Shown piece after piece: positions 1-21,486 of a DNA stretch of 64,000 nt; positions within the stretch are counted from its first letter, which is position 1; every line of letters begins with the position of its first letter. Both the position numbers and the translations under genes were made by a program. The notes beneath the pieces were generated by a model that saw nothing but the letters and a program-made list of their open reading frames with translations, was not told the DNA's origin and did no database searches. Source of the DNA: Elusimicrobia bacterium HGW-Elusimicrobia-1 (GTDB lineage Bacteria > Elusimicrobiota > Endomicrobiia > PHAN01); assembly GCA_002841695.1 (NCBI GenBank), contig PHAN01000003.1:164849-228848 (forward strand). The letters run 5' to 3'.

Positions 1-558
1 AGCGGCACGACGCTGATAGAGTGCAAACTTTTGGGTCGCCGCGCAATCGGTATTGACATAAATCCCAAAATGGTGCGGCTTGCGAGGGAAAATCTTGACT
101 TCAAAAGCTCCGCTCGACAGGCGCCGGTATCGGTCAGATTAGGCGATGCGCGCCATTTGAGCGGAATCCCCGACGGTAGCATTGATTTTATAGCCACCCA
201 TCCGCCGTACGTAGACATTATCAAATATAGTGACGGGAAAATAAAATCCGACCTCTCTAATATTCACAAACTTAAAGATTTTTGTGACGAGATAAAGAAA
301 GTTGCCGACGAGTGCCGTCGCGTGCTCAAACCGGGCAAGCGTTGCGCCATTCTTGTAGGCGATACGAGAAGGCATGGCTATTATCAACCGCTCGCTTTCG
401 GCGTGATGAAAGCGTTTCTCGACTCAGGATTCAAACTCAAGGAAGACATAATCAAACGCCAATGGAACTGCAAGGCCACGCCTCTTTGGGCAACTTTGTC
501 GAAAAAATATAATTTCCATTTGATTATGCACGAGCATTTGTTTGTGTTTGATAAATAA
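1..558 (+). CDS. DNA methyltransferase (N6-adenine/N4-cytosine class), 5'-truncated at window edge
   Basis: Frame 1 is open from nt 1; the ORF track's M at nt 31 is an in-frame TTG codon (tt-ttg-ggt). It starts with 'SGTTLIECKLLGRRAIGIDINPKMVRLAREN', the SAM-binding motif I region of amino-MTases, and later has 'FIATHPPYVDII', a (D/N/S/H)PPY catalytic motif IV. GSGTT preceding HPPY is not the usual beta-class order. Confidence 0.7.
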   Translation, partial: SGTTLIECKLLGRRAIGIDINPKMVRLARENLDFKSSARQAPVSVRLGDARHLSGIPDGSIDFIATHPPYVDIIKYSDGKIKSDLSNIHKLKDFCDEIKKVADECRRVLKPGKRCAILVGDTRRHGYYQPLAFGVMKAFLDSGFKLKEDIIKRQWNCKATPLWATLSKKYNFHLIMHEHLFVFDK

Positions 559-582
559 TTCCTAAATTTTACGGGAGAACAT

Positions 583-1455
583 ATGGCCATAAAAAAACTG
601 GTTGCTGGTTTACCTACATTTGACGGATTAATGCGTCCGGTAGTTAAAGCTCTTATTTCTTTAGGTGGTTCAGGTACCATTGAGGAGATTGATGGAAAGG
701 TTGCCGAACTTGAAAAGATAGATGAAGAGATATTGAAGGTACCTCACACTAAAGATGGTGCGACGACTGAAGTTGAATATAGGTTAGCTTGGGCAAGAAC
801 ATATCTAAAAAAATGTGGCATACTTAATAATTCCGAACGTGGAGTGTGGGCGCTTGCGAGACCTGATATAGATCCGGAAAGTATTAAACCTAACGAAATA
901 GTTAGAATATGCAGAGAGAATTATTTAAAAAAGGTCAGTGAAATAAAGGGTAAAGAAAGTTCTGATGTGGATGTTGTCTCAGAAGATGAATCGCAAAAAT
1001 GGAAGCAAGAGCTCCTTGATGTTTTGTTGGCAATTTCACCTGCATCATTTGAAAGATTGGCGCAAAGAATGCTTAGGGAAAGCGGGTTCATTCAAGTGGA
1101 AGTTACAGGTCGTACCGGTGACGGTGGTATAGATGGCAAGGGAATAATTCGTATAAGCGGACTATTGAGTTTCCATGTTATATTTCAATGTAAGCGTTAC
1201 AAGGGGGTTGTCAGCCCGAGCCAAATAAGGGATTTCCGAGGGGCTATGACGGGGCGGGCGGATAAAGGGTTATTTATTACAACAGGTTCATTTACACGTG
1301 AAGCTATCAAAGAGGCGACCCGTGATGGCGCGCCGCCGATCGATTTGATTGATGGTGAAAAACTTTGCGACAAGCTGAGGGAACTAAAATTAGGCATTAA
1401 CACAAAACTTATGGAAGAGGTTATTATTAACGGGGAATGGTTTAAAAGTTTGTAG
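583..1455 (+). CDS. mrr: Mrr-like restriction endonuclease (Mrr_N winged helix + Mrr_cat PD-(D/E)xK)
   Basis: C-terminal 'TGDGGIDGKGIIRISGLLSFHVIFQCKRYKGVVSPSQIRDFRGAM...GLFITTGSFTREA' matches the Mrr catalytic domain pattern (GxDGGIDG ... QCKRY). It lies 25 nt downstream of the MTase. Confidence 0.7.
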   Translation: MAIKKLVAGLPTFDGLMRPVVKALISLGGSGTIEEIDGKVAELEKIDEEILKVPHTKDGATTEVEYRLAWARTYLKKCGILNNSERGVWALARPDIDPESIKPNEIVRICRENYLKKVSEIKGKESSDVDVVSEDESQKWKQELLDVLLAISPASFERLAQRMLRESGFIQVEVTGRTGDGGIDGKGIIRISGLLSFHVIFQCKRYKGVVSPSQIRDFRGAMTGRADKGLFITTGSFTREAIKEATRDGAPPIDLIDGEKLCDKLRELKLGINTKLMEEVIINGEWFKSL

Positions 1456-1893: not shown

Positions 1894-3435
1894 ATGAGAG
1901 CGTTAAAGCTTTCAACGATAAACAGCTGTAAGCCCGGGCAATTGCGTTGCCGCGGGCTTTTTTATTTTGCGTCCGCGGCGTTTTTATCATCGATAATGAT
2001 TTTGTTTTTCTCCGATATACTTCTTGCAAAAACCTTCATCAGGGAACACTATTACCGCGCCGGGAAAAACGACACCGAAATCACTTCCCGGGCGATAGCG
2101 CTGCATCAGGTAAAGGCGCGGCTGCTCGAAGAAATCGGGACTTACATGGAAAGCACGTTTGAGAGCACGGAGCAGGAGGGCGGCGGTCTCGGCGGACAAT
2201 TCACGAAATATCAGATAGTAAGCATCACAGCGGGAATCACGGAGACAAAGATACTGGAAGAGCGGTGGGACGGTAAAATATATTATATAAAGGCCGAGAT
2301 AGACGTGGATATTGATGATACACGCCGTAAAATTCGGGAGATATCGCAGGATAGGGAACGGATGCGGGAAATAGAGGCGATAAACAGAAAAGCCGATGAG
2401 GCGCTAAGGCAGATAGAGATGCTGACAAAGTCAAAAAAAAGCATTCCGATAGAATACACCGGCAGCCATATTATGAAAGTGGATGGCCGCAAAGTAGTTA
2501 TCGGACTGGGCTTGCTCAACGGTGTCAGAAAAAGCCAACAATTCAAAATTATAAAATCCGACAGCAAGGTTAATCCGCGCACAGGTGTAATAGTACACAA
2601 AGAAACAGCCGTTATCGGGGCGCTTAAAGTTATAAATACCGACGAGTGGACTTCTGATTGCGTGGTGATTTCCGGCGCCGGACGTATAAAACCGGGTGAT
2701 TTGATCAGTCCTCGCGCAGAAAAGGGTATTATGGAAATTGAGGGCGCGCTGTCCAGAGCCGAACCGCTGGACGAATTTAAATTCCGCTTCAACTGGAAGT
2801 TTCCGTATTTATTCAGGATGGATTTGGGTTATCTCAGGCCGTATTTTATGGAAAGTTTCGGCGAGGCAGCATATTTGAATTTTTCTTTTGACTGGCCATG
2901 GTTTGAAATCGGCCCCGGTTTTGCGGGATTCTTTCGGTACGGTGTTCCGCTTTTCGGCGGAGCGTCGATTGTTATGAGGGTGGGCCCGTATGAAGGCCCG
3001 ATAAATATTATTTTGCGGCATAACGGTGGAAAATTTATAGGCGCCGATCCAAATCAAAGGATAAACGGATTGATAGAGACAAATTGGCGGATTTCCGGCC
3101 GTGTTTTGCTTTATGGCAGAATGCATCAATATAAAGGGTCGTGGCAGGCCGGTGAATTTTATCACGATGACAAAGGTTATCAATATAATACAAGAACTTA
3201 CGGTGGGGCGGAAATAGGTTCGGGGGATTTAAGCTTTTTTGTCCAATATGGAGATGTTTTTGAGTATTGCGCGCTCGGAAAAGACCCCCGAGTTGAGCGG
3301 AGAGGAGAATACGGTGGCGCCGGAATCAAGTTGAATATGACTCCGTTGAGATACACTTTTTCCGCCGAGGGGATAAGGGCGCTGGGCGACGACAGAAGTT
3401 TGATTTTGCGTCTGGGCATAGGTTATGAGTTTTAG
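1894..3435 (+). CDS. secreted coiled-coil / outer-membrane beta-barrel protein, paralog 1
   Basis: N-terminal signal peptide (RCRGLFYFASAAFLSSIMILFFSDILLA), a charged coiled-coil segment, then a Gly/Tyr-rich alternating-hydrophobic C-terminus ending '...LRLGIGYEF', an OMP C-terminal strand signature. The first ~170 aa are near-identical to ORF 4704..5777. Confidence 0.6.
   Translation: MRALKLSTINSCKPGQLRCRGLFYFASAAFLSSIMILFFSDILLAKTFIREHYYRAGKNDTEITSRAIALHQVKARLLEEIGTYMESTFESTEQEGGGLGGQFTKYQIVSITAGITETKILEERWDGKIYYIKAEIDVDIDDTRRKIREISQDRERMREIEAINRKADEALRQIEMLTKSKKSIPIEYTGSHIMKVDGRKVVIGLGLLNGVRKSQQFKIIKSDSKVNPRTGVIVHKETAVIGALKVINTDEWTSDCVVISGAGRIKPGDLISPRAEKGIMEIEGALSRAEPLDEFKFRFNWKFPYLFRMDLGYLRPYFMESFGEAAYLNFSFDWPWFEIGPGFAGFFRYGVPLFGGASIVMRVGPYEGPINIILRHNGGKFIGADPNQRINGLIETNWRISGRVLLYGRMHQYKGSWQAGEFYHDDKGYQYNTRTYGGAEIGSGDLSFFVQYGDVFEYCALGKDPRVERRGEYGGAGIKLNMTPLRYTFSAEGIRALGDDRSLILRLGIGYEF
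1930..1968 (+). terminator. intrinsic-terminator-like hairpin + T-tract embedded in codons 13-25 of paralog 1
   Basis: AAGCCCGGGCAA-TTGCG-TTGCCGCGGGCTT followed by TTTTTTATTTT. The stem is conserved, with compensatory changes, in copies at 4740-4778, 8002-8040 and 14690-14727. Confidence 0.4.
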
Positions 3436-3588
3436 GCGCCGCCGGTCCGACGCTCATTCGGGTCATTGATATTGCGTCGGGCGATAGACTCGCCGGCGCT
3501 TAAGCGGGGATAATATTTCCCCCTTGACATTCACCATAAAATATGGTATATGTAACATAAATTATGGTGAATCGTCCGGAGGCGAAAT

Positions 3589-3918
3589 ATGCTTGAATCC
3601 ATCCTCGGCAACAAGACGGTCGAAAAAATACTCCTTTATCTTGAGCGCTATGGGCAGGGTTATCCGCAAAGCATCGCGCAACTGTTCGGCGTCAGCTTAA
3701 ACGGCATTCAACAGCAGTTAAAACGCCTGGAAAACGGCGGCGTCATTTCGAGTAATCGTTACGGGAAACTGCGTCTGTACACATTTAATCCACGGTACTA
3801 CTTTTTGCCGGAGTTGCGCGCTATACTCAAAAAAGCCCTCGATGCTTTGCCCGAAGCGGAGATAAAAAAATACTACATGCTTCGCACCCGCCCGCGCAGG
3901 AGCGGTAAACCTTTGTGA
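3589..3918 (+). CDS. winged-helix DNA-binding protein (putative regulator/antitoxin)
   Basis: 'KTVEKILLYLERYGQGYPQSIAQLFGVSLNGIQQQLKRLENGGVI' is a wHTH (ArsR/MarR-like) pattern. Its stop overlaps the start of the next gene (GTGA). Confidence 0.5.
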   Translation: MLESILGNKTVEKILLYLERYGQGYPQSIAQLFGVSLNGIQQQLKRLENGGVISSNRYGKLRLYTFNPRYYFLPELRAILKKALDALPEAEIKKYYMLRTRPRRSGKPL

Positions 3919-4528: not shown

Positions 4529-4597
4529 GTGGTTTTCGTATGAATTTTGTATGGATTACTCGTGGTTTTCGTGTGGTCTTCGTGTGGTATTTTATAG
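4529..4597. repeat. phased 11-bp repeats (GTGGTTTTCGT-like) upstream of paralog-2 promoter
   Basis: gtggttttcgt at 4529, then gtggttttcgt, gtggtcttcgt and gtggtatttta in perfect 11-bp register at 4562-4594. Confidence 0.6.
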
Positions 4598-4634: not shown

Positions 4635-4663
4635 TTGAATCCACCCGTCCGAAAATGTATACT
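4635..4663 (+). promoter_or_regulatory. sigma70-type promoter TTGAAT-17-TGn-TATACT for paralog 2
   Basis: -35 ttgaat at 4635-4640, a 17-nt spacer ending in TG, and -10 tatact at 4658-4663. The ATG at 4704 follows an RBS-like 'agaggggt'. Confidence 0.55.
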
Positions 4664-4703
4664 CTGAAAAGATGAAACAGAAACAGTAACACAGAGGGGT
4701 AAA

Positions 4704-5777
4704 ATGAGAGCATCAAAGCTTTCAACGGCAAATAATCGGCAGCCCGGGCGTTTACTGCGCCGCGGGCTTTTTTATTTTGCGCCCGCGGCGTTTTTATCGT
4801 CGATGATGATTCTGTTTTTCTCCCAAGCGCTTCTTGCAAAAACATTTATAAGGGAACACTATTATCGCGCCGGCAAGCAGGATACCCAATTGACCGCCCG
4901 GGCAATTGCATTGCATCAGGTTAAGTCGCGTCTGATCGAGGAGGTCGGCACTTATATAGAAAGCGCATTTGAAAGCACGGAACGAGAAAGCAAAGCCGGG
5001 AGCGAACAATTCACGAAGCATCAGATAGTAAGCATAACCGCGGGAATCACGGAAACAAAGATACTGGAAGAGAAATGGGACGGTAAGACCTATTACATAA
5101 AAGCAGAAATTGAAGTCGACGTCGACGACACGAAGCGGCGGATAACGGAGATATCCGGCGACAGAAGCAAGATGAGAGAGATAGAAGAGATAAACCGAAA
5201 GGCCGACGATGCTTTGCGGGAAATAGAAGCGCTCAAAAAATCAAGCGGCTTACCGAAACGCGGCGGCGGTGCGTTTTATGTCGGATTGGATCTGCCCGGT
5301 ACATTCAAGGAAAACTACAGTATCGGCACATACAGCGGTGAACGACCCGTCGATTCCGGAGCCGGGGTTGCAATCGGATGGGAATACGAGGGACGCGGCG
5401 TTCCCTTGGGACTTGGTTTCGGAGCTTTTTACCAGTTGCCGAGGACGCTGACTTTTAGCGGCTCGGCTACTATCGGTTTTTCGCCGCTATATCTCCTGGG
5501 GCATTATTATGTAAACGACTTCACTTATATCATAGGTCGATTGGGATACAGTATGTATTACAGTAAAAATTTCACCACATACGCGAGCTACGCGGGCGGG
5601 TTGTATTATGCCTTCGGGCTGGGAATAAAAACGCAGGGATTCACTCTTTCCGGGGTTTACAGCGTCAATAAAAGCGAGGGCTCGGGGTTTAGCGATGTGT
5701 GGCTTTTGCCCCGCGGACCCATTTCAGGGACATTAACATACTCTCAGATTTCCATTCTCTTTAAATTATATATCTGA
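4704..5777 (+). CDS. secreted coiled-coil / outer-membrane beta-barrel protein, paralog 2
   Basis: The N-terminal ~170 aa are highly similar to paralog 1 ('MRASKLST...RRGLFYFAPAAFLSSMMILFF...KTFIREHYYRAGK...'). The C-terminus is a different Gly/Tyr-rich beta-strand region. Confidence 0.6.
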   Translation: MRASKLSTANNRQPGRLLRRGLFYFAPAAFLSSMMILFFSQALLAKTFIREHYYRAGKQDTQLTARAIALHQVKSRLIEEVGTYIESAFESTERESKAGSEQFTKHQIVSITAGITETKILEEKWDGKTYYIKAEIEVDVDDTKRRITEISGDRSKMREIEEINRKADDALREIEALKKSSGLPKRGGGAFYVGLDLPGTFKENYSIGTYSGERPVDSGAGVAIGWEYEGRGVPLGLGFGAFYQLPRTLTFSGSATIGFSPLYLLGHYYVNDFTYIIGRLGYSMYYSKNFTTYASYAGGLYYAFGLGIKTQGFTLSGVYSVNKSEGSGFSDVWLLPRGPISGTLTYSQISILFKLYI

Positions 5778-7255: not shown

Positions 7256-7657
7256 ATGAAAACAAGAATGGGTTTGTGGATTGACCACAGAAAAGCCGTC
7301 ATCGTGGCCGTTACGGACAAAGGGGAAGACACAATACTGATATTGTCGAAAGTGGAAAAGCATCTCCAGCGTTCCGGCGATTCGTCCCGCAAAGGTTATG
7401 CATCGCGGCAGGCGCCCGCGTCCGATAGTCGCCAGAGAATGTTTACAGGGCATATCAACGTTTACTACGATGCTATAATTGCGTGTCTTCGCGCCGCGGA
7501 ATCCATTCTGATATTTGGTCCCGGCGAGGCAAAAGGCGAACTGAAAAAACGTCTTATAAAAAGTAAACTGGGCGGACGCATCGCAGGGGTTGAAGCAGTC
7601 GGCAATATGACGGATAACCAGATTGTGGCTAAGGTTCGCCGGCGCTTCGCTAAGTAG
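7256..7657 (+). CDS. hypothetical protein
   Basis: RBS 'aaggagag' 7 nt upstream; sits 11 nt after the previous gene. Confidence 0.45.
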   Translation: MKTRMGLWIDHRKAVIVAVTDKGEDTILILSKVEKHLQRSGDSSRKGYASRQAPASDSRQRMFTGHINVYYDAIIACLRAAESILIFGPGEAKGELKKRLIKSKLGGRIAGVEAVGNMTDNQIVAKVRRRFAK

Positions 7658-7770
7658 CGTTTGGCAATGTGGGTCGAGGCGGAATCATCCCGGGAAGTCG
7701 GATTGGTGAGAAGATAGGCCGCTAAAAATCGCGAAGTTTTTATGTAAACGATAAATACCCCGAATTTCGC

Positions 7771-7870
7771 GTGGTTTTTTAGTGGTTTTCGAGTGGTTGC
7801 CCCAGTGGTTTTCGTGTGGTTTTTGTGTGGCGTTCGGGTGGTGATTTATAGTGGATTTGGGGTGGTTTTG
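7771..7870. repeat. array of ~9 phased GTGG(T)TTT-N repeats (period 11-13 bp) upstream of the copy-3 promoter
   Basis: gtggtttttta / gtggttttcga / gtggttgcccca / gtggttttcgt / gtggtttttgt / gtggcgttcgg / gtggtgatttata / gtggatttgggg / tggttttg. Confidence 0.6.
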
Positions 7871-7895
7871 AAGCTAAAAAATAGCTAAGAATGGC

Positions 7896-7924
7896 TTGAA
7901 TTACGGTCACTGAAAATGTATACT
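7896..7924 (+). promoter_or_regulatory. sigma70-type promoter TTGAAT-17-TGn-TATACT (copy 3)
   Basis: ttgaat at 7896-7901, 17-nt spacer, tatact at 7919-7924. Same architecture as 4635-4663. Confidence 0.55.
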
Positions 7925-7965
7925 CTGAAAAGATAAAGCAATAAAATATCACAGCGGGGTCCGAT

Positions 7966-8043
7966 GAGAGCATCAAAGCTTTCAACGGGGGGAATTGTAA
8001 TCGCCCGGGCGTCTATTGGCGCCTCGGGCTTTTTTATTTTATG
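7966..8043 (+). pseudogene. truncated third copy of the paralog leader (26 codons), ends ATGA-overlapping the HNH gene
   Basis: 'MRASKLSTGGIVIARASIGASGFFIL*' aligns to paralogs 1 and 2 through the hairpin/T-tract (8002-8040). Similarity stops exactly after 'ttttttatttt' at 8040, where 'atgattaaaccc' begins. Confidence 0.55.
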
Positions 8044-8736
8044 ATTAAACCCGGCGATGTAATTTCTTATCAAACTATGTGTCAGGAAGAAAAATTTAGT
8101 TTACAAAAAGGTATGAATTATCACCTCGCACCTGGCTATAGTGTCATTTTGATGAGCACACAAACTGGTGCGCCATATTCAGATCGCGTCGAGGGTAATG
8201 GTAAAACGCTTATTTATGAGGGGCATGACATCCCTAAAACCAAAGGGGTCGATGATCCGAAAAAATATGATCAGCCTATGAAAAATCCAAGCGGGTCATT
8301 GACGCAAAATGGAATGTTTTTTAAGGCGGCTGGCGAGTATAAAAAGAACGCCAAAAGTCCAGAACTCGTTAAGGTTTATGAAAAAATCAGGCCTGGTATT
8401 TGGGCATACAATGGATTGTTTGAGCTTCAAGATGCTTGGATGGAAAGTGATGGCCGCCGTGACGTGTTTAAGTTTAAATTGGCAATCACGGACGAATCAC
8501 TAAGTGAAAAGAATGCTGAGCAGTCAGATATTGATCATACTCGTATAATTCCGTCGGAAGTCAAGCGTATAGTTTGGGCACGTGATAAGGGTAAGTGTGT
8601 CGAGTGTGGTGCGGTCGATAATCTTCATTTTGACCATATTATTCCTTACAGTAAAGGTGGCTCTTCGCGCGACGCAGAAAATATCCAACTTCTTTGCGCG
8701 AGACATAATTTGGCAAAGAGGGATAGGATTGGATAA
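8041..8736 (+). CDS. SRA-like domain + HNH endonuclease (putative modification-dependent type IV restriction nuclease)
   Basis: C-terminal HNH ('CVECGAVDNLHFDHIIPYSKGG...NIQLLCARHN'). The N-terminus 'GDVISYQTM...HLAPGYSVILMS...LIYEGHD...DQ...N' resembles the SRA/YDG base-flipping pattern (G.H..GI...A.SIVLSG...YTGSGG). Confidence 0.55.
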   Translation: MIKPGDVISYQTMCQEEKFSLQKGMNYHLAPGYSVILMSTQTGAPYSDRVEGNGKTLIYEGHDIPKTKGVDDPKKYDQPMKNPSGSLTQNGMFFKAAGEYKKNAKSPELVKVYEKIRPGIWAYNGLFELQDAWMESDGRRDVFKFKLAITDESLSEKNAEQSDIDHTRIIPSEVKRIVWARDKGKCVECGAVDNLHFDHIIPYSKGGSSRDAENIQLLCARHNLAKRDRIG

Positions 8737-8752
8737 TATCAGAGGGCTTGCT

Positions 8753-9151
8753 ATGAATATTTCCGAGTTTATTAGGTTCGACAATCTTGTTTTGTTGCCA
8801 GCTTTGCTGGCTGTATTGAAGAAGTTTTATGACGCGGCTTTGAGGTATCAGACGTATCATTTCAAGGAATATTTTCTGGTCCCCACGCGTTTCGAGCGGT
8901 GGCTTATGCATGTTGGATTGCTCGGCATGTGTTTTTGTATCTGTTTTTCGTTTACTGCAAAGAGTATTCTTGTGTTGCGTGAGTATATGTGGTTTATCCA
9001 ATTTATTTGCGTTTGTGCGCTTAATGTTGCTGTTATAAGTTGTTCTGTGATGCCTCCGCTTAGGGCTGGCAAAAGTGAATTTAAAATAATTTACAGTCGC
9101 AATATTCTGAGGGGTAAATATTATAATAAAAATGGGGGACTGTTTTTCTGA
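8753..9151 (+). CDS. hypothetical small hydrophobic protein (AT-rich)
   Basis: Hydrophobic segments (LLPALLAVL, GLLGMCFCICFSF). The track ORF starts at 8582 inside the HNH gene; the ATG at 8753 follows 'agaggg'. A competing antisense ORF exists. Confidence 0.3.
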   Translation: MNISEFIRFDNLVLLPALLAVLKKFYDAALRYQTYHFKEYFLVPTRFERWLMHVGLLGMCFCICFSFTAKSILVLREYMWFIQFICVCALNVAVISCSVMPPLRAGKSEFKIIYSRNILRGKYYNKNGGLFF

Positions 9152-9247
9152 GAGAGTGGGGGGGGAGACGCTAAACCACAACCCACGGCTCGGTTTTGTA
9201 ACTGTGGTGTTGTCGCTTGAATCGGGGCTGTTGAATGTGGAGGCAAT

Positions 9248-9784
9248 ATGTCAAAAAAGCAAATCGTAAAATCATCCCGCCCACCGGTTTTCGCCGCAAT
9301 AGATTTTGAAACTGCCGACTATTGGCACGACAGCGCGTGCTCTGTGGCTGTAGTGCGGGTGGAAGACAATAAGATTGTCGAGCGCGTCCATCACTACATC
9401 CGCCCCCCGCGCCAGGAATTTGTTTTTACGCACGTGCACGGTATCACGTGGGAAGATGTGGTCGATGCTCCCAAATTCTCTCAGATATGGCCCGACTTGC
9501 ACAAAGTAATTTCAGGCGTTGAGTTTCTTGCGGCGCACAACGCCCCTTTTGATCGTGCGGTGCTCGATAAATGTTGTAGTAAGGCGAATTTTAAACTGCC
9601 CGATGTTCCGTTTCAATGCACTATGCGTCTTGCCAGAGAGATTTGGGGGCTAAGGCCGACTAAATTATCCGATGTCTGCGCGCATTTAGACATACCGTTG
9701 CAACATCATAACGCTAAATCTGATGCCGAGGCGTGCGCAAAGATTGTGATCGCAGCCATGAAAGCAGGCGCGTCTTTGTCTTAG
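9248..9784 (+). CDS. DEDDh 3'-5' exonuclease (DnaQ/epsilon-like)
   Basis: Exo I 'AIDFETAD', Exo II 'HNAPFDRAVL' and Exo III 'HNAKSDAEACAKI' motifs. RBS 'ggagg' upstream. Confidence 0.7.
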   Translation: MSKKQIVKSSRPPVFAAIDFETADYWHDSACSVAVVRVEDNKIVERVHHYIRPPRQEFVFTHVHGITWEDVVDAPKFSQIWPDLHKVISGVEFLAAHNAPFDRAVLDKCCSKANFKLPDVPFQCTMRLAREIWGLRPTKLSDVCAHLDIPLQHHNAKSDAEACAKIVIAAMKAGASLS

Positions 9785-9832
9785 TAGATTTTTTGGGGGG
9801 CGGGTATTTTTGAAGGGAACAATCCTAAAAAC

Positions 9833-10288
9833 TCAACCTATCAGCCACGCCTCGCCGGTGGGTTTGCGGGGCTGGCGCTTGAAACCTTTCGTAGATTTTA
9901 CGGAGAGTTTTACTTTTGATTCGGCTTTCTGAGAAAATCCTTCGGTGTGAGATGATACCATCGCCTCGAACGCGTTTATCACGGCGAGGCGTTTTTTATC
10001 GTTCAGACGTTCAAGTCGTCGCCACATGGCCAGCCATCGCGTCAGACCCGGTTTGGGCGGATTCGGTAAATATCCTTCTTCATCGCCGGCAAATACTCCG
10101 AAGTCCGCGTTCAACGCCCGTGCCATTTTTGCTACCGTCACAATCGACGGCTTTTTGACGCCGCGCTCGACGTCGCTTATAAACTTCGCCGAAACGCCCG
10201 ACGCTTCGGATAGTTTTTCTTGAGTGATTCCGGCCTCTTCTCTCCGTGCTCTGAGCGTTTGCGCCACGTTTTTGTAGATTTTTTCCAT
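9833..10288 (-). CDS. XRE-family HTH transcriptional regulator
   Basis: 'LRARREEAGITQEKLSEASGVSAKFISDVERGVKKPSIVTVAKMARAL' is a classic Cro/C1 HTH. Confidence 0.7.
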   Translation of the reverse strand: MEKIYKNVAQTLRARREEAGITQEKLSEASGVSAKFISDVERGVKKPSIVTVAKMARALNADFGVFAGDEEGYLPNPPKPGLTRWLAMWRRLERLNDKKRLAVINAFEAMVSSHTEGFSQKAESKVKLSVKSTKGFKRQPRKPTGEAWLIG

Positions 10289-10464
10289 AAGTCAAATCCC
10301 GCCTTTGCGCTCGCCTTGCGGTTCACGCTTTAGGGCGATTATTTTACAATATCCCCGCCGCGTCACACTACCACCTAAAAGGCGTATTAAATATCGCCTT
10401 ATGGCTTGACTTTGCCCTCTTGATTTTCTATAATCTACGTAAATCCAGCAAGGGAGGGAAAGTC

Positions 10465-10884
10465 ATGAAAAAAGTTTTTACCCCATTGGTTTTGTTGATA
10501 CTTGTAGGTTTTATCGGATGCGCCACTGCCCCCGTCTGGCGGCCGCTTTTCCCGCCCGAATATAAAGTAAGCAAGGATTTTGACAAGGTTTGGCCCAAAA
10601 TAGTCGCCGCTATTTCGGAAGATTTCGATATTGCAATACTGGAAAAAGAATCTGGATACCTACAAACTAACTGGAAGGAAAAACGAGGTTTTCTCGGAGC
10701 CAAGGAAACAAGAACAAGGGTTTCCGTCAGGACTCAGAAGAAAACTGCCCCGCTTGAGATTGATGTCCGTGCCGAGAAACAGGGTTGGGAATCGTGGACG
10801 GAACAATGGATAGATAAGGGCAATGACGTTGACCTCGAAGAAAAAGTGCGTAATGCTGTTGCGCGGAAATTGATGGGCGACTGA
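10465..10884 (+). CDS. lipoprotein, unknown function
   Basis: 'MKKVFTPLVLLILVGFIGC' has a signal peptide and lipobox Cys. RBS 'gggaggg'. The track ORF starts earlier, at 10420. Confidence 0.5.
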   Translation: MKKVFTPLVLLILVGFIGCATAPVWRPLFPPEYKVSKDFDKVWPKIVAAISEDFDIAILEKESGYLQTNWKEKRGFLGAKETRTRVSVRTQKKTAPLEIDVRAEKQGWESWTEQWIDKGNDVDLEEKVRNAVARKLMGD

Positions 10885-19946: not shown

Positions 19947-21197
19947 TTGAGGGGGTATATTATGAGATTATTCAAAAAATGTTCTCATTGCCGGAGCCAG
20001 TTCGCGGCGACGAAGATAACCGCTGCCGCCGAAGCGGCCAAATGCCCCAAGTGCGGGGCGTCTCTTCGCGGTGCCCAGTGGTATATCGACTACTACGTGG
20101 GCTACGAGCGTAAGAGAGAGGCCGTCGGCACACAAAAGCGTTTCGCCGAGGAAGTCATAGCCAAGCGCCGCATCGAGATAAAAGAGGGGAAGTTCTTTGA
20201 CAGAAAAAAAGAGAGCGTGCACAGATTAAAAGAAATCCTCGACGACTTTCTGGCGTATTCCAAAACCAACAAGAAATCCTATGAGCGCGACATCGGACTC
20301 GTCAAGCAGCTTCTGACTTACTTCGACGGCTCCAAGCGCCTTGAGGCGGTAACGCCGATCCTCATCGAACAATACAAAGGCAAACGCCTCAACGCCGACG
20401 GAAGAAAGCCCGCGACGGTAAACCGCGAACTCGCCTGCCTCAAGTGCGCTTTCAACTGGGCGATAAAAAACGCCAAGGCGTCGGCGAACCCCGTGCGAAG
20501 CGTCAAACTCTTGAAAGAAAACAATATGCGCTTGCGCTATCTCTCGCAAGAAGAAATCGGACGGCTTCTTAACGCCTGTCCGACGACGATAAGGCGCATC
20601 GTGACCGCCGCGCTTCACACCGGAATGCGCCTGGGGGAAATACTTCCTCTCAAATGGGAAGACATTGATTTCGCTCAGAATATCATCATCCTCAAAAATA
20701 CCAAAAGCGGCCGGATGAGAGAAATCCCGATAAACGGGGTTTTGCGCAAAACGCTCAATGAGTGCCGCAAAAACACGGATGAAGTCCACGTCTTCTGCAA
20801 CGAATCGGGCGTGCCTTATCGCAGTATCAATAGCATGTTCCAGCGCATAATCAAGAAAGCGGGCATTGCCGATTTCCGGTTCCACGATTTGCGCCATACG
20901 GCGGCATCATACATGGTCATGTTGGGCATACAACTTGCCACCGTAAGGGAGATTTTGGGCCATCAGAGCATCAATATGACGCTCAGGTATGCCCACCTGT
21001 CTCAGGAGCACAAACTCACGGCAATGGAGATGTTGGGGACGCGACTCGACACCCTTTCGACACCCCGACCCCCCGATGGCCAAAACACCCGAAAAGAGGG
21101 TGATGAGAAAAGTATTGATATTTCAGCATTTTTGAGTAATCTGGAGAGGTCGCCTAGTGGTTTAGGGCGGCGGTTTGCTAAACCGCTGTCCCGCTAA
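19947..21197 (+). CDS. int: tyrosine recombinase (phage-type integrase), C-terminal tail reads into tRNA-Ser
   Basis: Catalytic-domain motifs 'RLGEILPLKWEDIDF', 'HDLRHTAASYMVMLG' and 'LGHQSINMTLRYAHL'. N-terminal zinc ribbon (CSHCRS...CPKCG). The last ~18 codons (stop at 21195-21197) are tRNA sequence. Confidence 0.8.
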   Translation: MRGYIMRLFKKCSHCRSQFAATKITAAAEAAKCPKCGASLRGAQWYIDYYVGYERKREAVGTQKRFAEEVIAKRRIEIKEGKFFDRKKESVHRLKEILDDFLAYSKTNKKSYERDIGLVKQLLTYFDGSKRLEAVTPILIEQYKGKRLNADGRKPATVNRELACLKCAFNWAIKNAKASANPVRSVKLLKENNMRLRYLSQEEIGRLLNACPTTIRRIVTAALHTGMRLGEILPLKWEDIDFAQNIIILKNTKSGRMREIPINGVLRKTLNECRKNTDEVHVFCNESGVPYRSINSMFQRIIKKAGIADFRFHDLRHTAASYMVMLGIQLATVREILGHQSINMTLRYAHLSQEHKLTAMEMLGTRLDTLSTPRPPDGQNTRKEGDEKSIDISAFLSNLERSPSGLGRRFAKPLSR

Positions 21198-21231
21198 AGC
21201 GGGACCGGGGGTTCGAATCCCCCCCTCTCCG
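21143..21231 (+). tRNA. tRNA-Ser (anticodon GCU), long variable arm
   Basis: Acceptor GGAGAGG/CCTCTCC. Anticodon loop TT-GCT-AA in stem GCGGCGG/ACCGCT. Long variable arm GTCCCGCTAAAGCGGGAC. T-arm GGGGGTTCGAATCCCCC. Discriminator G. Confidence 0.8.
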
Positions 21232-21486
21232 ATACCTTTTGAACAGACAGAAAGCTTTTTGGTAAGTCGAGTAAGGGCAGTTTGGGCTCTTTCGGAGACA
21301 AAATATACACCACGCCGTCATTTAAGCAAGACGCTCCGCATCTTTACCTGAAAGCCGCGGACGTCTTCGGCAACGTCGCAATCAGCGGCAAAAATTGACG
21401 GATTTCGCCGCATCTCTCTATAAAATCCAAATCCAATCGGCGTTCGATGCCCCCGTCGGCGCCTTGATAATTTCAAAGGGGGCACA

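Follow-up and report, generated by a model that had tools for sequence, protein, structure and literature searches.

A putative single-protein SRA-HNH type IV restriction endonuclease and its gene neighbourhood in an Elusimicrobia genome

In Elusimicrobia bacterium HGW-Elusimicrobia-1, a variable region rich in defence genes harbors four adjacent genes for an SRA-HNH nuclease, a small membrane protein, a DEDDh exonuclease, and a regulator of the XRE family (Table 1), and it raises the question whether these genes act together as one modification-dependent defence locus or whether the nuclease is sufficient by itself. One-protein enzymes that cut DNA with methylated cytosines are a known form of anti-phage defence. 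The analysis covered the stretch of 64,000 nucleotides around the genes, denoted as the window. It is likely that the product of the first gene is a type IV (modification-dependent) SRA-HNH restriction endonuclease that is self-sufficient as a single protein, and that the membrane protein, the exonuclease, and the regulator adjoin it in this lineage only and are not obligate partners.

Table 1. Features of the SRA-HNH locus (positions within the window)
Feature	Position	Strand	Description and basis
Phased repeats	7765-7869	+	~nine degenerate 11-bp repeats, core GTGG; Tandem Repeats Finder (period 11/22), repeat search
Promoter-like site of leader module	7896-7924	+	TTGAAT-17 nt-TATACT
Truncated leader ORF	7964-8044	+	26 codons (MRASKLST...); alignment, exact 20-mer repeats 4704/7964
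Intrinsic-terminator-like hairpin	8003-8040	+	GC-rich hairpin and U-run; terminator scan, folding
SRA-HNH endonuclease	8041-8736	+	231 aa; putative type IV, 5mC/5hmC-dependent
Membrane protein	8753-9151	+	132 aa; two transmembrane helices, conserved basic C-terminal tail
DEDDh (DnaQ-like) 3'-5' exonuclease, stand-alone	9248-9784	+	178 aa; Pfam RNase_T, E 4e-20
XRE-family HTH regulator	9833-10288	-	151 aa; HTH aa 9-63 and 85-aa C-terminal extension
Intergenic control region	10289-10473		right end of the block common to L165
Four-gene block	8041-10473	+	2.43 kb; 85% nucleotide identity to L165

The SRA-HNH protein and its family

The protein consists of an SRA domain (approximately aa 1-150), a disordered linker (151-168), and an HNH domain (169-231). 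The Pfam HNH match (E 1.1e-8) exceeds the curated cut-off, and residues 20-148 match SAD_SRA with an E-value of 3.8e-6 and 27.2 bits, slightly below the curated cut-off of 30.7 bits. Foldseek searches of an AlphaFold model (pLDDT 75) against the PDB retrieved SRA domains as best matches, headed by that of SUVH5 (E 2e-6, TM 0.64-0.72), with further matches to SUVH6, KRYPTONITE, ScoMcrA, AspBHI, MspJI, and UHRF1/2. The family profile likewise aligns to the SUVH5 SRA domain (E 2.7e-5), with Q22, Y46, D48, and Y59 placed on chain positions 31, 55, 57, and 67 (Q392, Y416, D418, and Y428, respectively); the counterparts in TagI are Q35, Y55, D58, and Y67 (PMC6212794). The thumb residue Gln22 and the pocket residues Tyr46, Tyr59, and Asp48 are invariant in 25 of 25 diverse aligned homologues, and the same holds for the HNH catalytic residues D198-H199, N214, and N223 and for the CCCH zinc site (C186, C189, C219, and H222). 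The SRA-like N-terminus proposed in the original prediction, together with the suggestion to look for it by structure comparison, is thus borne out by the Foldseek matches and the conserved base-flipping and pocket residues, but the domain covers approximately residues 1-150 instead of 1-120. In GenBank, the protein is already annotated as an HNH endonuclease (PKN02026.1); this gene model starts 24 codons too late, and the base-flipping Gln is therefore missing from it.

Judged from relatives with solved structures, the SRA domain would flip 5-methyl- or 5-hydroxymethyl-cytosine out of foreign DNA, with Gln22 occupying the gap in the duplex, Tyr46 and Tyr59 sandwiching the flipped base, and Asp48 reading its Watson-Crick edge. 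Nicking or cutting nearby would be the task of the small HNH domain, which is stabilised by zinc and probably acts as a dimer. Such an activity would need a host that lacks cytosine-5 methylation; the methyltransferases encoded nearby belong to the N6/N4 type, and no C5-methyltransferase-like ORF emerged from a crude motif scan across the 64 kb of the window.

The family is large, with 5914 database matches and an identity of ~65% between phyla (about 60-68%), archaea included, and the clade is mostly found in uncultured Chloroflexota, Omnitrophota, Bacteroidota, Elusimicrobia, and Bathyarchaeia. Its distribution is sporadic (333 matching stretches among 185,579 species, one genome each), and in other genomes the gene often adjoins housekeeping genes. 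All three observations would also fit a role outside defence, either as a selfish homing-like nuclease gene or as a reader-nuclease that targets modified host DNA in repair or regulation, and a role of this kind would explain the unusually high conservation across phyla. It is nevertheless highly unlikely: an intron, intein, or phage context of SRA-HNH was not found, and plasmid and phage collections together with IMG/VR contained no full-length copy, only HNH-domain matches and one incomplete copy at the edge of a contig. Moreover, characterised proteins that share this architecture act as restriction enzymes (PMC4333417; PMC6212794), and the gene sits among defence-type genes here and in close relatives, namely DpnII restriction-modification, Mrr, MazG-like, and HD phosphohydrolase genes; DpnII-type restriction-modification genes and Mrr lie upstream of SRA-HNH in this genome.

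Leader module and predicted expression

As originally predicted, the block is inserted at a truncated leader. The segment 7912-8040, which stops exactly at the SRA-HNH ATG, represents a third copy of the promoter and first ~25 codons found in the paralogous genes at 1894 and 4704. The leader ORF repeats the 5' end of these two genes (1894-3435 and 4704-5777), and its TGA stop overlaps the start codon of the nuclease gene (TTATGA; sequence read directly). The phased repeats are located upstream of the leader promoter, with a shorter set (4562-4588) preceding the paralogous leader, and the GAAAATGTATACT box has three matches in the window versus 0.08 expected. Rfam searches of the whole window, plus a permissive run on 7600-10500, gave no family that matches the leader or the block. 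The SRA-HNH gene (GC 0.415) probably represents an AT-rich acquisition inserted immediately after a duplicated promoter-leader-terminator module.

The hairpin in this module (-22.9 kcal/mol, z -4.7) ends one base short of the SRA-HNH start codon and is kept in each of the three leaders; copy 1 carries a compensatory change. A Shine-Dalgarno motif was not found upstream of the ATG. Due to the position behind the leader-terminator module and the lack of this motif, weak expression of the nuclease is probable, and it would probably proceed via terminator read-through and a coupling of its translation to that of the 26-codon leader ORF. A strong terminator directly upstream and the lack of a Shine-Dalgarno motif and of a promoter of its own could also point to a gene that is silent or decaying in this genome, but such a fate is extremely unlikely. 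The reading frame is intact with all catalytic residues kept, and a dN/dS of 0.08 versus the copy in a close relative (L165) argues for purifying selection. Another relative (L166) retains the leader junction at 77% identity, with the small ORF in frame and an ATGA end. Furthermore, in the two paralogous genes this hairpin is part of the coding sequence and must therefore be read through.

The four-gene block and its neighbours

The predicted AT-rich hydrophobic mini-ORF corresponds to the membrane gene, the product of which has two clear transmembrane helices; its GC content of 0.386 is the lowest in the block. It is an ORFan with three proteins in 1.8 billion representatives: a word-index search returned the protein itself and the L165 copy alone, and full HMMER on these representatives added one distant relative in an unrelated context, adjoining a discoidin-domain protein and no nuclease. 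Its dN/dS versus L165 is 0.33.

The prediction of a stand-alone, epsilon-like 3'-5' exonuclease is confirmed by the RNase_T/DEDDh match. The catalytic residues D19, E21, D102, H154, and D159 are intact and invariant among aligned relatives, the model (pLDDT 92) is closest in structure to the DinG exonuclease, ExoX, and epsilon (TM 0.72-0.83), and the protein falls into a widespread family in which six cysteines are invariant. It resembles two defence-associated models, PADLOC PDC-S48 (6e-35) and a Cas-associated DEDDh model (1.6e-32). An assignment to PDC-S48 was rejected, as the match is limited to model positions 4-169 of 411, i.e. the generic DEDDh domain. A CRISPR-associated protein of the Cas2-DnaQ type was likewise rejected: the window holds no array (TRF, k-mer spacing search), and no cas domains were detected among the neighbouring ORFs scanned.

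An XRE regulator is present as predicted (HTH_3, E 3e-14; dN/dS 0.11 versus L165); it had been described as divergent, but it lies tail-to-tail with the exonuclease gene and is divergent from the downstream gene 10465 only. The adjoining control region contains a strong promoter (TTGACT-17-TATAAT, 10406-10434), a palindrome (AAGGCG-N10-CGCCTT, 10381-10402), and the ribosome-binding site and ATGAAAAAA of the downstream gene. The regulator is positioned for this divergent promoter, unlike the nuclease promoter, and most likely controls itself and the promoter at 10406-10434. The PADLOC models Control_protein and capH match it at 1e-7 to 1e-9. A restriction-modification controller (C) protein was dismissed, given 151 aa and a downstream, convergent location on the opposite strand, and so was an antitoxin of a toxin-antitoxin pair, with a HipB-type match that is sub-threshold only and no toxin candidate.

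The four genes were found where they had been predicted, but the conserved block ends at 10473, past the proposed end at 10288. The same block occurs in one close relative only (L165), where the flanks are unrelated on both sides and both boundaries fall at start codons; L166 has the leader and SRA-HNH without the other three genes. Convincing terminal inverted or direct repeats, or a transposase or integrase bounding the block, were not detected. An integrase beside a tRNA-Ser lies ~10 kb downstream of SRA-HNH, and neither the window nor L001 contained an att-like repeat of this tRNA. In the empty-site comparison, all contigs with the exact DEDDh gene came from the same strain and were 100% identical over 19.8 kb. 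A gene-length difference in L082 (207 aa) reflects gene calling instead of mutation. The GC content rises from the two left-hand genes to 0.50 in the exonuclease gene and 0.52 in the regulator gene (core region, 0.53), and since GC and dS differ between the left and the right half, the sequence suggests a composite origin of the block.

If 8041-10288 were one defence cassette, SRA-HNH would sense and nick modified DNA, the exonuclease would enlarge breaks or degrade the invader, the membrane protein would serve as effector or anchor, and the XRE protein would control expression. Joint occurrence in L165 with breakpoints exactly at start codons, close spacing of the three co-oriented genes (gaps of 16 and 96 bp), and the lack of a terminator between them in the terminator scan leave room for a lineage-specific functional link, and purifying selection on all four genes as well as the likeness of the exonuclease to defence-associated models agree with it. 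Such a cassette is nonetheless unlikely in view of a neighbourhood survey of 80 other SRA-HNH loci and 80 DEDDh loci. Within 5 kb of SRA-HNH, neither the exonuclease (BLAST and profile search) nor the membrane protein was present at any of the 80 loci, and none of the 80 DEDDh loci contained SRA-HNH, the XRE regulator, or the membrane protein, or showed a recurrent neighbour. Conserved co-occurrence of the four genes across unrelated genomes was thus not observed. In the 80 other genomes, SRA-HNH stands alone in varying contexts with no partner conserved in most loci; the only two recurrent neighbours are a NERD/Schlafen-helicase/S24 protein (5 loci) and a small upstream HTH gene (14 loci), the latter a controller-like arrangement with an HTH protein of 73-108 aa overlapping the SRA-HNH start that is absent here. 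The occurrence of SRA-HNH alone in L166, the unrelated setting of the distant membrane-protein relative, the differing halves of the block, and a regulator that is convergent, downstream, and not placed to regulate the nuclease promoter also speak against the cassette, and the PADLOC matches of the exonuclease span a generic domain only.

The single modification-dependent locus of the original prediction, with an accessory exonuclease and a regulator, is accordingly not upheld; the idea of an accessory exonuclease is weakly supported, and the exonuclease, the membrane protein, and the regulator look like local neighbours rather than parts of a conserved system. Adjacency of nuclease, exonuclease, and regulator in one genome is no evidence of a system. 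It is quite unlikely that the 2.43-kb block represents a portable four-gene unit of this Elusimicrobia lineage, composed of a 5mC-sensing HNH nickase, DEDDh, the membrane protein, and an XRE-plus-promoter module, that moves between promoter/leader junctions by recombination exactly at start codons; if true, type IV restriction would have a multi-component variant here. The self-sufficient nuclease, if this reading is right, is a routine but useful annotation that corrects PKN02026.1. It draws attention to a very large, highly conserved clade of compact putative SRA-HNH enzymes in uncultured bacteria and archaea, and small nucleases that depend on 5mC/5hmC are attractive in practice as reagents for epigenetic mapping.

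Comparison with known systems

Among the neighbours, the XRE protein shares with C-protein controllers an XRE-type HTH near a restriction gene, but these are encoded upstream and co-oriented, whereas the regulator described here is downstream and convergent and carries its C-terminal extension. The exonuclease has the fold and the five catalytic residues of ExoX, Pol III epsilon, the N-terminal exonuclease of DinG, and Cas2-DnaQ; it differs from them as a stand-alone protein with no polymerase, helicase, or Cas partner nearby. MspJI, AspBHI, and LpnPI use an SRA-like base-flipping sensor for 5mC/5hmC as well (Foldseek matches 4oc8 and 4f0q), but their nuclease is of the PD-(D/E)XK type and they form tetramers, in contrast to the HNH enzyme. 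ScoMcrA (SBD-SRA-HNH, PDB 5ZMM) aligns structurally in its SRA and HNH parts over ~300 columns, and its additional N-terminal sulfur-binding domain for phosphorothioate DNA is absent from the protein studied here.

The counterparts of the same architecture are ScoA3IV (Sco5333), TbiR51I (Tbis1), and TagI (PDB 6GHS), single SRA-HNH proteins that bind and restrict 5mC/5hmC DNA and employ a thumb Gln, two Tyr, and an Asp (PMC4333417; PMC6212794). The Elusimicrobia protein is more compact than TagI, the residues of which extend beyond 288, and PDB searches gave no sequence-level match from this clade to TagI or ScoMcrA; its SRA part most resembles that of plant SUVH5 (Y-x-D spacing), and its HNH part the IscB/Cas9-type HNH domains. 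A CCCH-type zinc finger also occurs in the Cflav protein (cited in PMC4333417). With ScoA3IV, TbiR51I, and TagI it shares an N-terminal SRA and a C-terminal HNH domain on one polypeptide, the thumb Gln, the two pocket Tyr, and the pocket Asp, a ββα-Me nuclease with a zinc finger, and a stand-alone gene without a methyltransferase, and it very probably adds a new member to the already known SRA-HNH type IV restriction enzymes.

SRA fold and active site of the nuclease

The first gene of the block (Table) encodes an HNH domain that scores above the Pfam threshold (E 1.1e-8), preceded at residues 20-148 by a SAD_SRA match (E 3.8e-6) with 27.2 bits against a cut-off of 30.7. The predicted structure (pLDDT 75) was compared with the PDB by Foldseek, and 25 diverse homologues were aligned (A1). 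SRA domains rank first among the PDB matches, the best being that of SUVH5 on 5mC or 5hmC DNA (E 2e-6, target TM 0.64-0.72); KRYPTONITE, SUVH6, AspBHI, MspJI, and UHRF1/2 are further matches, and in ScoMcrA both the SRA and the HNH parts align. The SUVH5 SRA domain is also reached by sequence with the family profile (E 2.7e-5), which places Q22, Y46, D48, and Y59 at positions 31, 55, 57, and 67 of the SUVH5 chain. If the construct begins at residue 362, these are Q392, Y416, D418, and Y428, in SUVH5 the thumb glutamine (Q392), the stacking tyrosines (Y416 and Y428), and the aspartate reading the flipped cytosine (D418). Throughout A1, all four residues are invariant, as are the YDG motif (here Y123-N-G), D198-H199, N214, and N223 of the HNH domain, and the zinc ligands C186, C189, C219, and H222. 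The TagI counterparts of the four pocket residues are Q35, Y55, D58, and Y67 (PMC6212794).

The original prediction of an SRA fold at the N-terminus is borne out by the Foldseek matches, the SUVH5 profile alignment, and the invariant residues, and for the same reasons the non-SRA fold that had been named as its refutation is not seen. By predicted fold and by active-site and pocket residues, the assignment as a putative type IV enzyme is well supported.

GenBank names the product "HNH endonuclease" with a length of 207 aa (PKN02026.1). Conservation in the family alignment begins at residue 1, so the 231-aa version is the correct one. The GenBank entry and one ENA gene call start at Met25, omitting window 8041-8112 and thereby 24 conserved residues, including the invariant C14 and E17 and the thumb Gln22.

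Table. Features of the block and its surroundings (window coordinates; dN/dS relative to L165, a close relative contig with the same four genes)
Feature	Position	Strand	Product	dN/dS
SRA-HNH	8041-8736	+	231 aa	0.08
Membrane protein	8753-9151	+	132 aa; no Pfam family	0.33
DEDDh exonuclease	9248-9784	+	178 aa; Pfam RNase_T/DEDDh 4e-20	0.18
XRE regulator	9833-10288	-	151 aa; Pfam HTH_3 3e-14	0.11
Leader module copies	1845-1968, 4651-4778, 7912-8040			
Tyrosine integrase	19947-21197		abuts tRNA-Ser	
tRNA-Ser (GCT)	21142-21232			

Neighbours of the nuclease and linkage of the four genes

The SRA-HNH family comprises 5914 matches, the best 60-68% identical and many of these bearing names from other phyla or archaea. 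A scan of one genome each of 185,579 species gave 333 matching stretches, and the 80 loci retained belong to Chloroflexota, Omnitrophota, Bacteroidota, Nitrospirota, Acidobacteriota, Planctomycetota, Bathyarchaeia, and others. Within 5 kb, BLAST and profile searches find a DEDDh-like or 132-aa-protein-like gene in none of the 80. Clustering of all neighbours yields two recurrent partners only: an HTH_3 gene of 73-108 aa directly upstream that overlaps the SRA-HNH start (14 of 80 loci), a layout like that of a controller protein for a type IV enzyme, and a ~795-aa NERD/Schlafen-group-3 helicase/S24 protein directly upstream (5 of 80), itself preceded by a MazG-like gene. The remaining neighbours are unrelated and frequently housekeeping genes. 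Plasmid and phage collections contain no full-length copy, and IMG/VR hardly any. A type IV enzyme that stands alone and spreads horizontally would show such a pattern.

The HTH_3-overlap loci are mostly from Bacteroidota and include L015, L025, L028, L034, L052, L053, L058, L060-L062, and L078 (about 4750-5000 in each). NERD/Schlafen/S24 and MazG-like neighbours are found at L056 2617-5004 and L002 2203-2550; a MazG-like gene also lies directly upstream of SRA-HNH in L165 (2-358), and an HD-domain phosphohydrolase downstream in L166 (983-1612), a relative with SRA-HNH alone. The NERD/Schlafen/S24, MazG-like, and HD-domain genes are all of nucleotide-metabolism or defence type.

The stand-alone DEDDh exonuclease predicted behind the nuclease is present with intact catalytic residues (D19, E21, D102, H154, and D159, invariant in the family alignment) and a confident model (pLDDT 92). 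Structurally it comes nearest to the DinG exonuclease domain, ExoX, Pol III epsilon, the PolC exonuclease domain, RNase T, and a CRISPR DnaQ domain; PADLOC matches (PDC-S48, Cas-associated DEDDh) are confined to the generic DEDDh domain. The family has 3109 matches, the best among those listed being mostly 54-69% identical; in some of its members a SAP domain is found at the N-terminus. Six cysteines (C31, C109, C110, C124, C144, and C163) are invariant in its alignment (A2). Eighty metagenomic DEDDh loci share no recurrent neighbour, and XRE, SRA-HNH, and the membrane protein are found at none of them. The AT-rich hydrophobic mini-ORF of the original prediction proves to be a 132-aa frame (GC 0.386) with two clear transmembrane helices; its basic C-terminal tail is strongly conserved. 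A word-index search returns only itself and the L165 copy. When 1.8 billion representatives were searched in full with HMMER, the protein itself and one distant 130-aa relative came up, the latter adjoining a discoidin-domain protein with no nuclease nearby; the protein is close to an ORFan.

L165, a 3.8-kb Logan contig, is the sole evidence for linkage of the four genes. It contains all of them in the same order and shares 85% nucleotide identity with window 8040-10473 between unrelated flanks, a MazG-like gene replacing the leader on the left and a double-zinc-ribbon protein replacing the lipoprotein gene at 10465 on the right. The left breakpoint coincides exactly with the SRA-HNH ATG, and the right one comes directly after ATGAAAAAA, about three codons into the downstream gene; these positions suggest that cassettes are exchanged at expression signals. 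Purifying selection acts on all four genes (Table). The block nevertheless looks composite, because dS relative to L165 drops from 0.71 (SRA-HNH) to 0.29 (XRE), identity climbs to 92-98% across 9885-10434, and the GC content of the SRA-HNH (0.415) and membrane protein genes (0.386) differs from that of the DEDDh (0.50) and XRE genes (0.52), the core region right of tRNA-Ser having 0.53. L166 (77% identity) shares the leader and SRA-HNH with window 7917-8737, followed by the HD-domain gene, and has none of the other three genes; SRA-HNH therefore also moves alone among close relatives. No report pairing SRA-HNH restriction with a DEDDh partner was found in the literature searched. The comparison argues for the exonuclease, the membrane protein, and XRE as lineage-specific neighbours. 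A functional four-gene cassette appears improbable, and the accessory exonuclease once read as part of one locus is not upheld by either set of 80 loci.

Expression signals and genomic setting

A leader module occurs three times, before SRA-HNH and before each of the paralogous genes 1894-3435 and 4704-5777 (about 62% identical). All copies have the box GAAAATGTATACT (3 matches vs 0.08 expected), the start ATGAGAGCATCAAAGCTTTCAACG (MRASKLST), and a GC hairpin (-20 to -23 kcal/mol) followed by TTTTTTATTTT; the hairpin of copy 1 shows a compensatory change (GCG...CGC to GCAA...TTGC). The third copy carries a 26-codon ORF (7964-8044) whose TGA overlaps the SRA-HNH ATG, in agreement with the predicted insertion of the block at a truncated leader, and junction and frame are identical in L166. 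No Shine-Dalgarno motif was found before SRA-HNH. We infer weak expression via read-through and translational coupling, which would suit a potentially self-toxic nuclease. Among the 80 homologues (L002-L081), a Shine-Dalgarno-like motif occurs in the 40 nt upstream of the start in 23 only, and in 46 an open frame of 25 codons or more that comes from upstream ends at -15 to +5; there are hints that translational coupling to upstream sequence may be common in the family.

Apart from the leader copies, the 64-kb window has no exact 20-mer repeats. Each copy has a TATACT -10 box and a strong hairpin with a U-run that resembles a terminator; in the two intact paralogues this hairpin falls within the sequence coding for the signal peptide. 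The module may act as an attenuator or as a hot spot for recombination. Immediately before the leader promoters (7765-7869 and 4562-4588) come about nine degenerate, phased copies of an 11-bp GTGG repeat. They have no match in Rfam, and their helical phasing points to bent DNA or to sites bound by a regulator. The secreted paralogues have a Gly/Tyr-rich, outer-membrane beta-barrel-like C-terminal region; on visual inspection, the product of the L165 gene that follows the block (2791-3732) seems to have a similar C-terminus.

The XRE regulator is present as predicted, its divergent orientation only in part: it lies tail-to-tail with the exonuclease and is divergent solely from a promoter close to consensus (TTGACT-17-TATAAT, 10406-10434), with the palindrome AAGGCG-N10-CGCCTT ahead of it. 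From this position the regulator would most readily control itself and this promoter, not the nuclease. The intergenic stretch on the XRE side (10289-10473), which comprises the promoter, the palindrome, a ribosome-binding site, and ATGAAAAAA, shares 91-95% identity with L165 2615-2799, where it drives a wholly different downstream gene.

DpnII-type restriction-modification genes lie upstream of the window start, and a Mrr-family gene is found at 583-1455. The cluster (window 31-1455; 1-3415 of L001, a contig of the same strain) comprises a D12 methyltransferase, DpnII, a second N6/N4 methyltransferase, and then the Mrr-family type IV enzyme, 6.5 kb upstream of SRA-HNH. By gene content, the region would be a defence island that holds modification-dependent nucleases of two kinds. 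The integrase ORF ends inside or abuts tRNA-Ser(GCT), with an excisionase-like HTH_17 gene just upstream, and lipopolysaccharide core genes begin right of the tRNA. The block looks to sit in an integrated, defence-rich island, which probably comprises the left 21 kb of the window; in the available sequence, no att repeat was found that would fix its limits. Contigs of one organism match the window at 100% identity.

Comparison with known type IV enzymes

PDB searches by sequence do not reach TagI or ScoMcrA, and the HNH part is closest to the IscB/Cas9 type. The protein represents a compact, divergent clade of a known architecture. It agrees with what is known of ScoA3IV, TbiR51I, and TagI (PMC4333417, PMC6212794, PMC6765204), to which it adds a further member.
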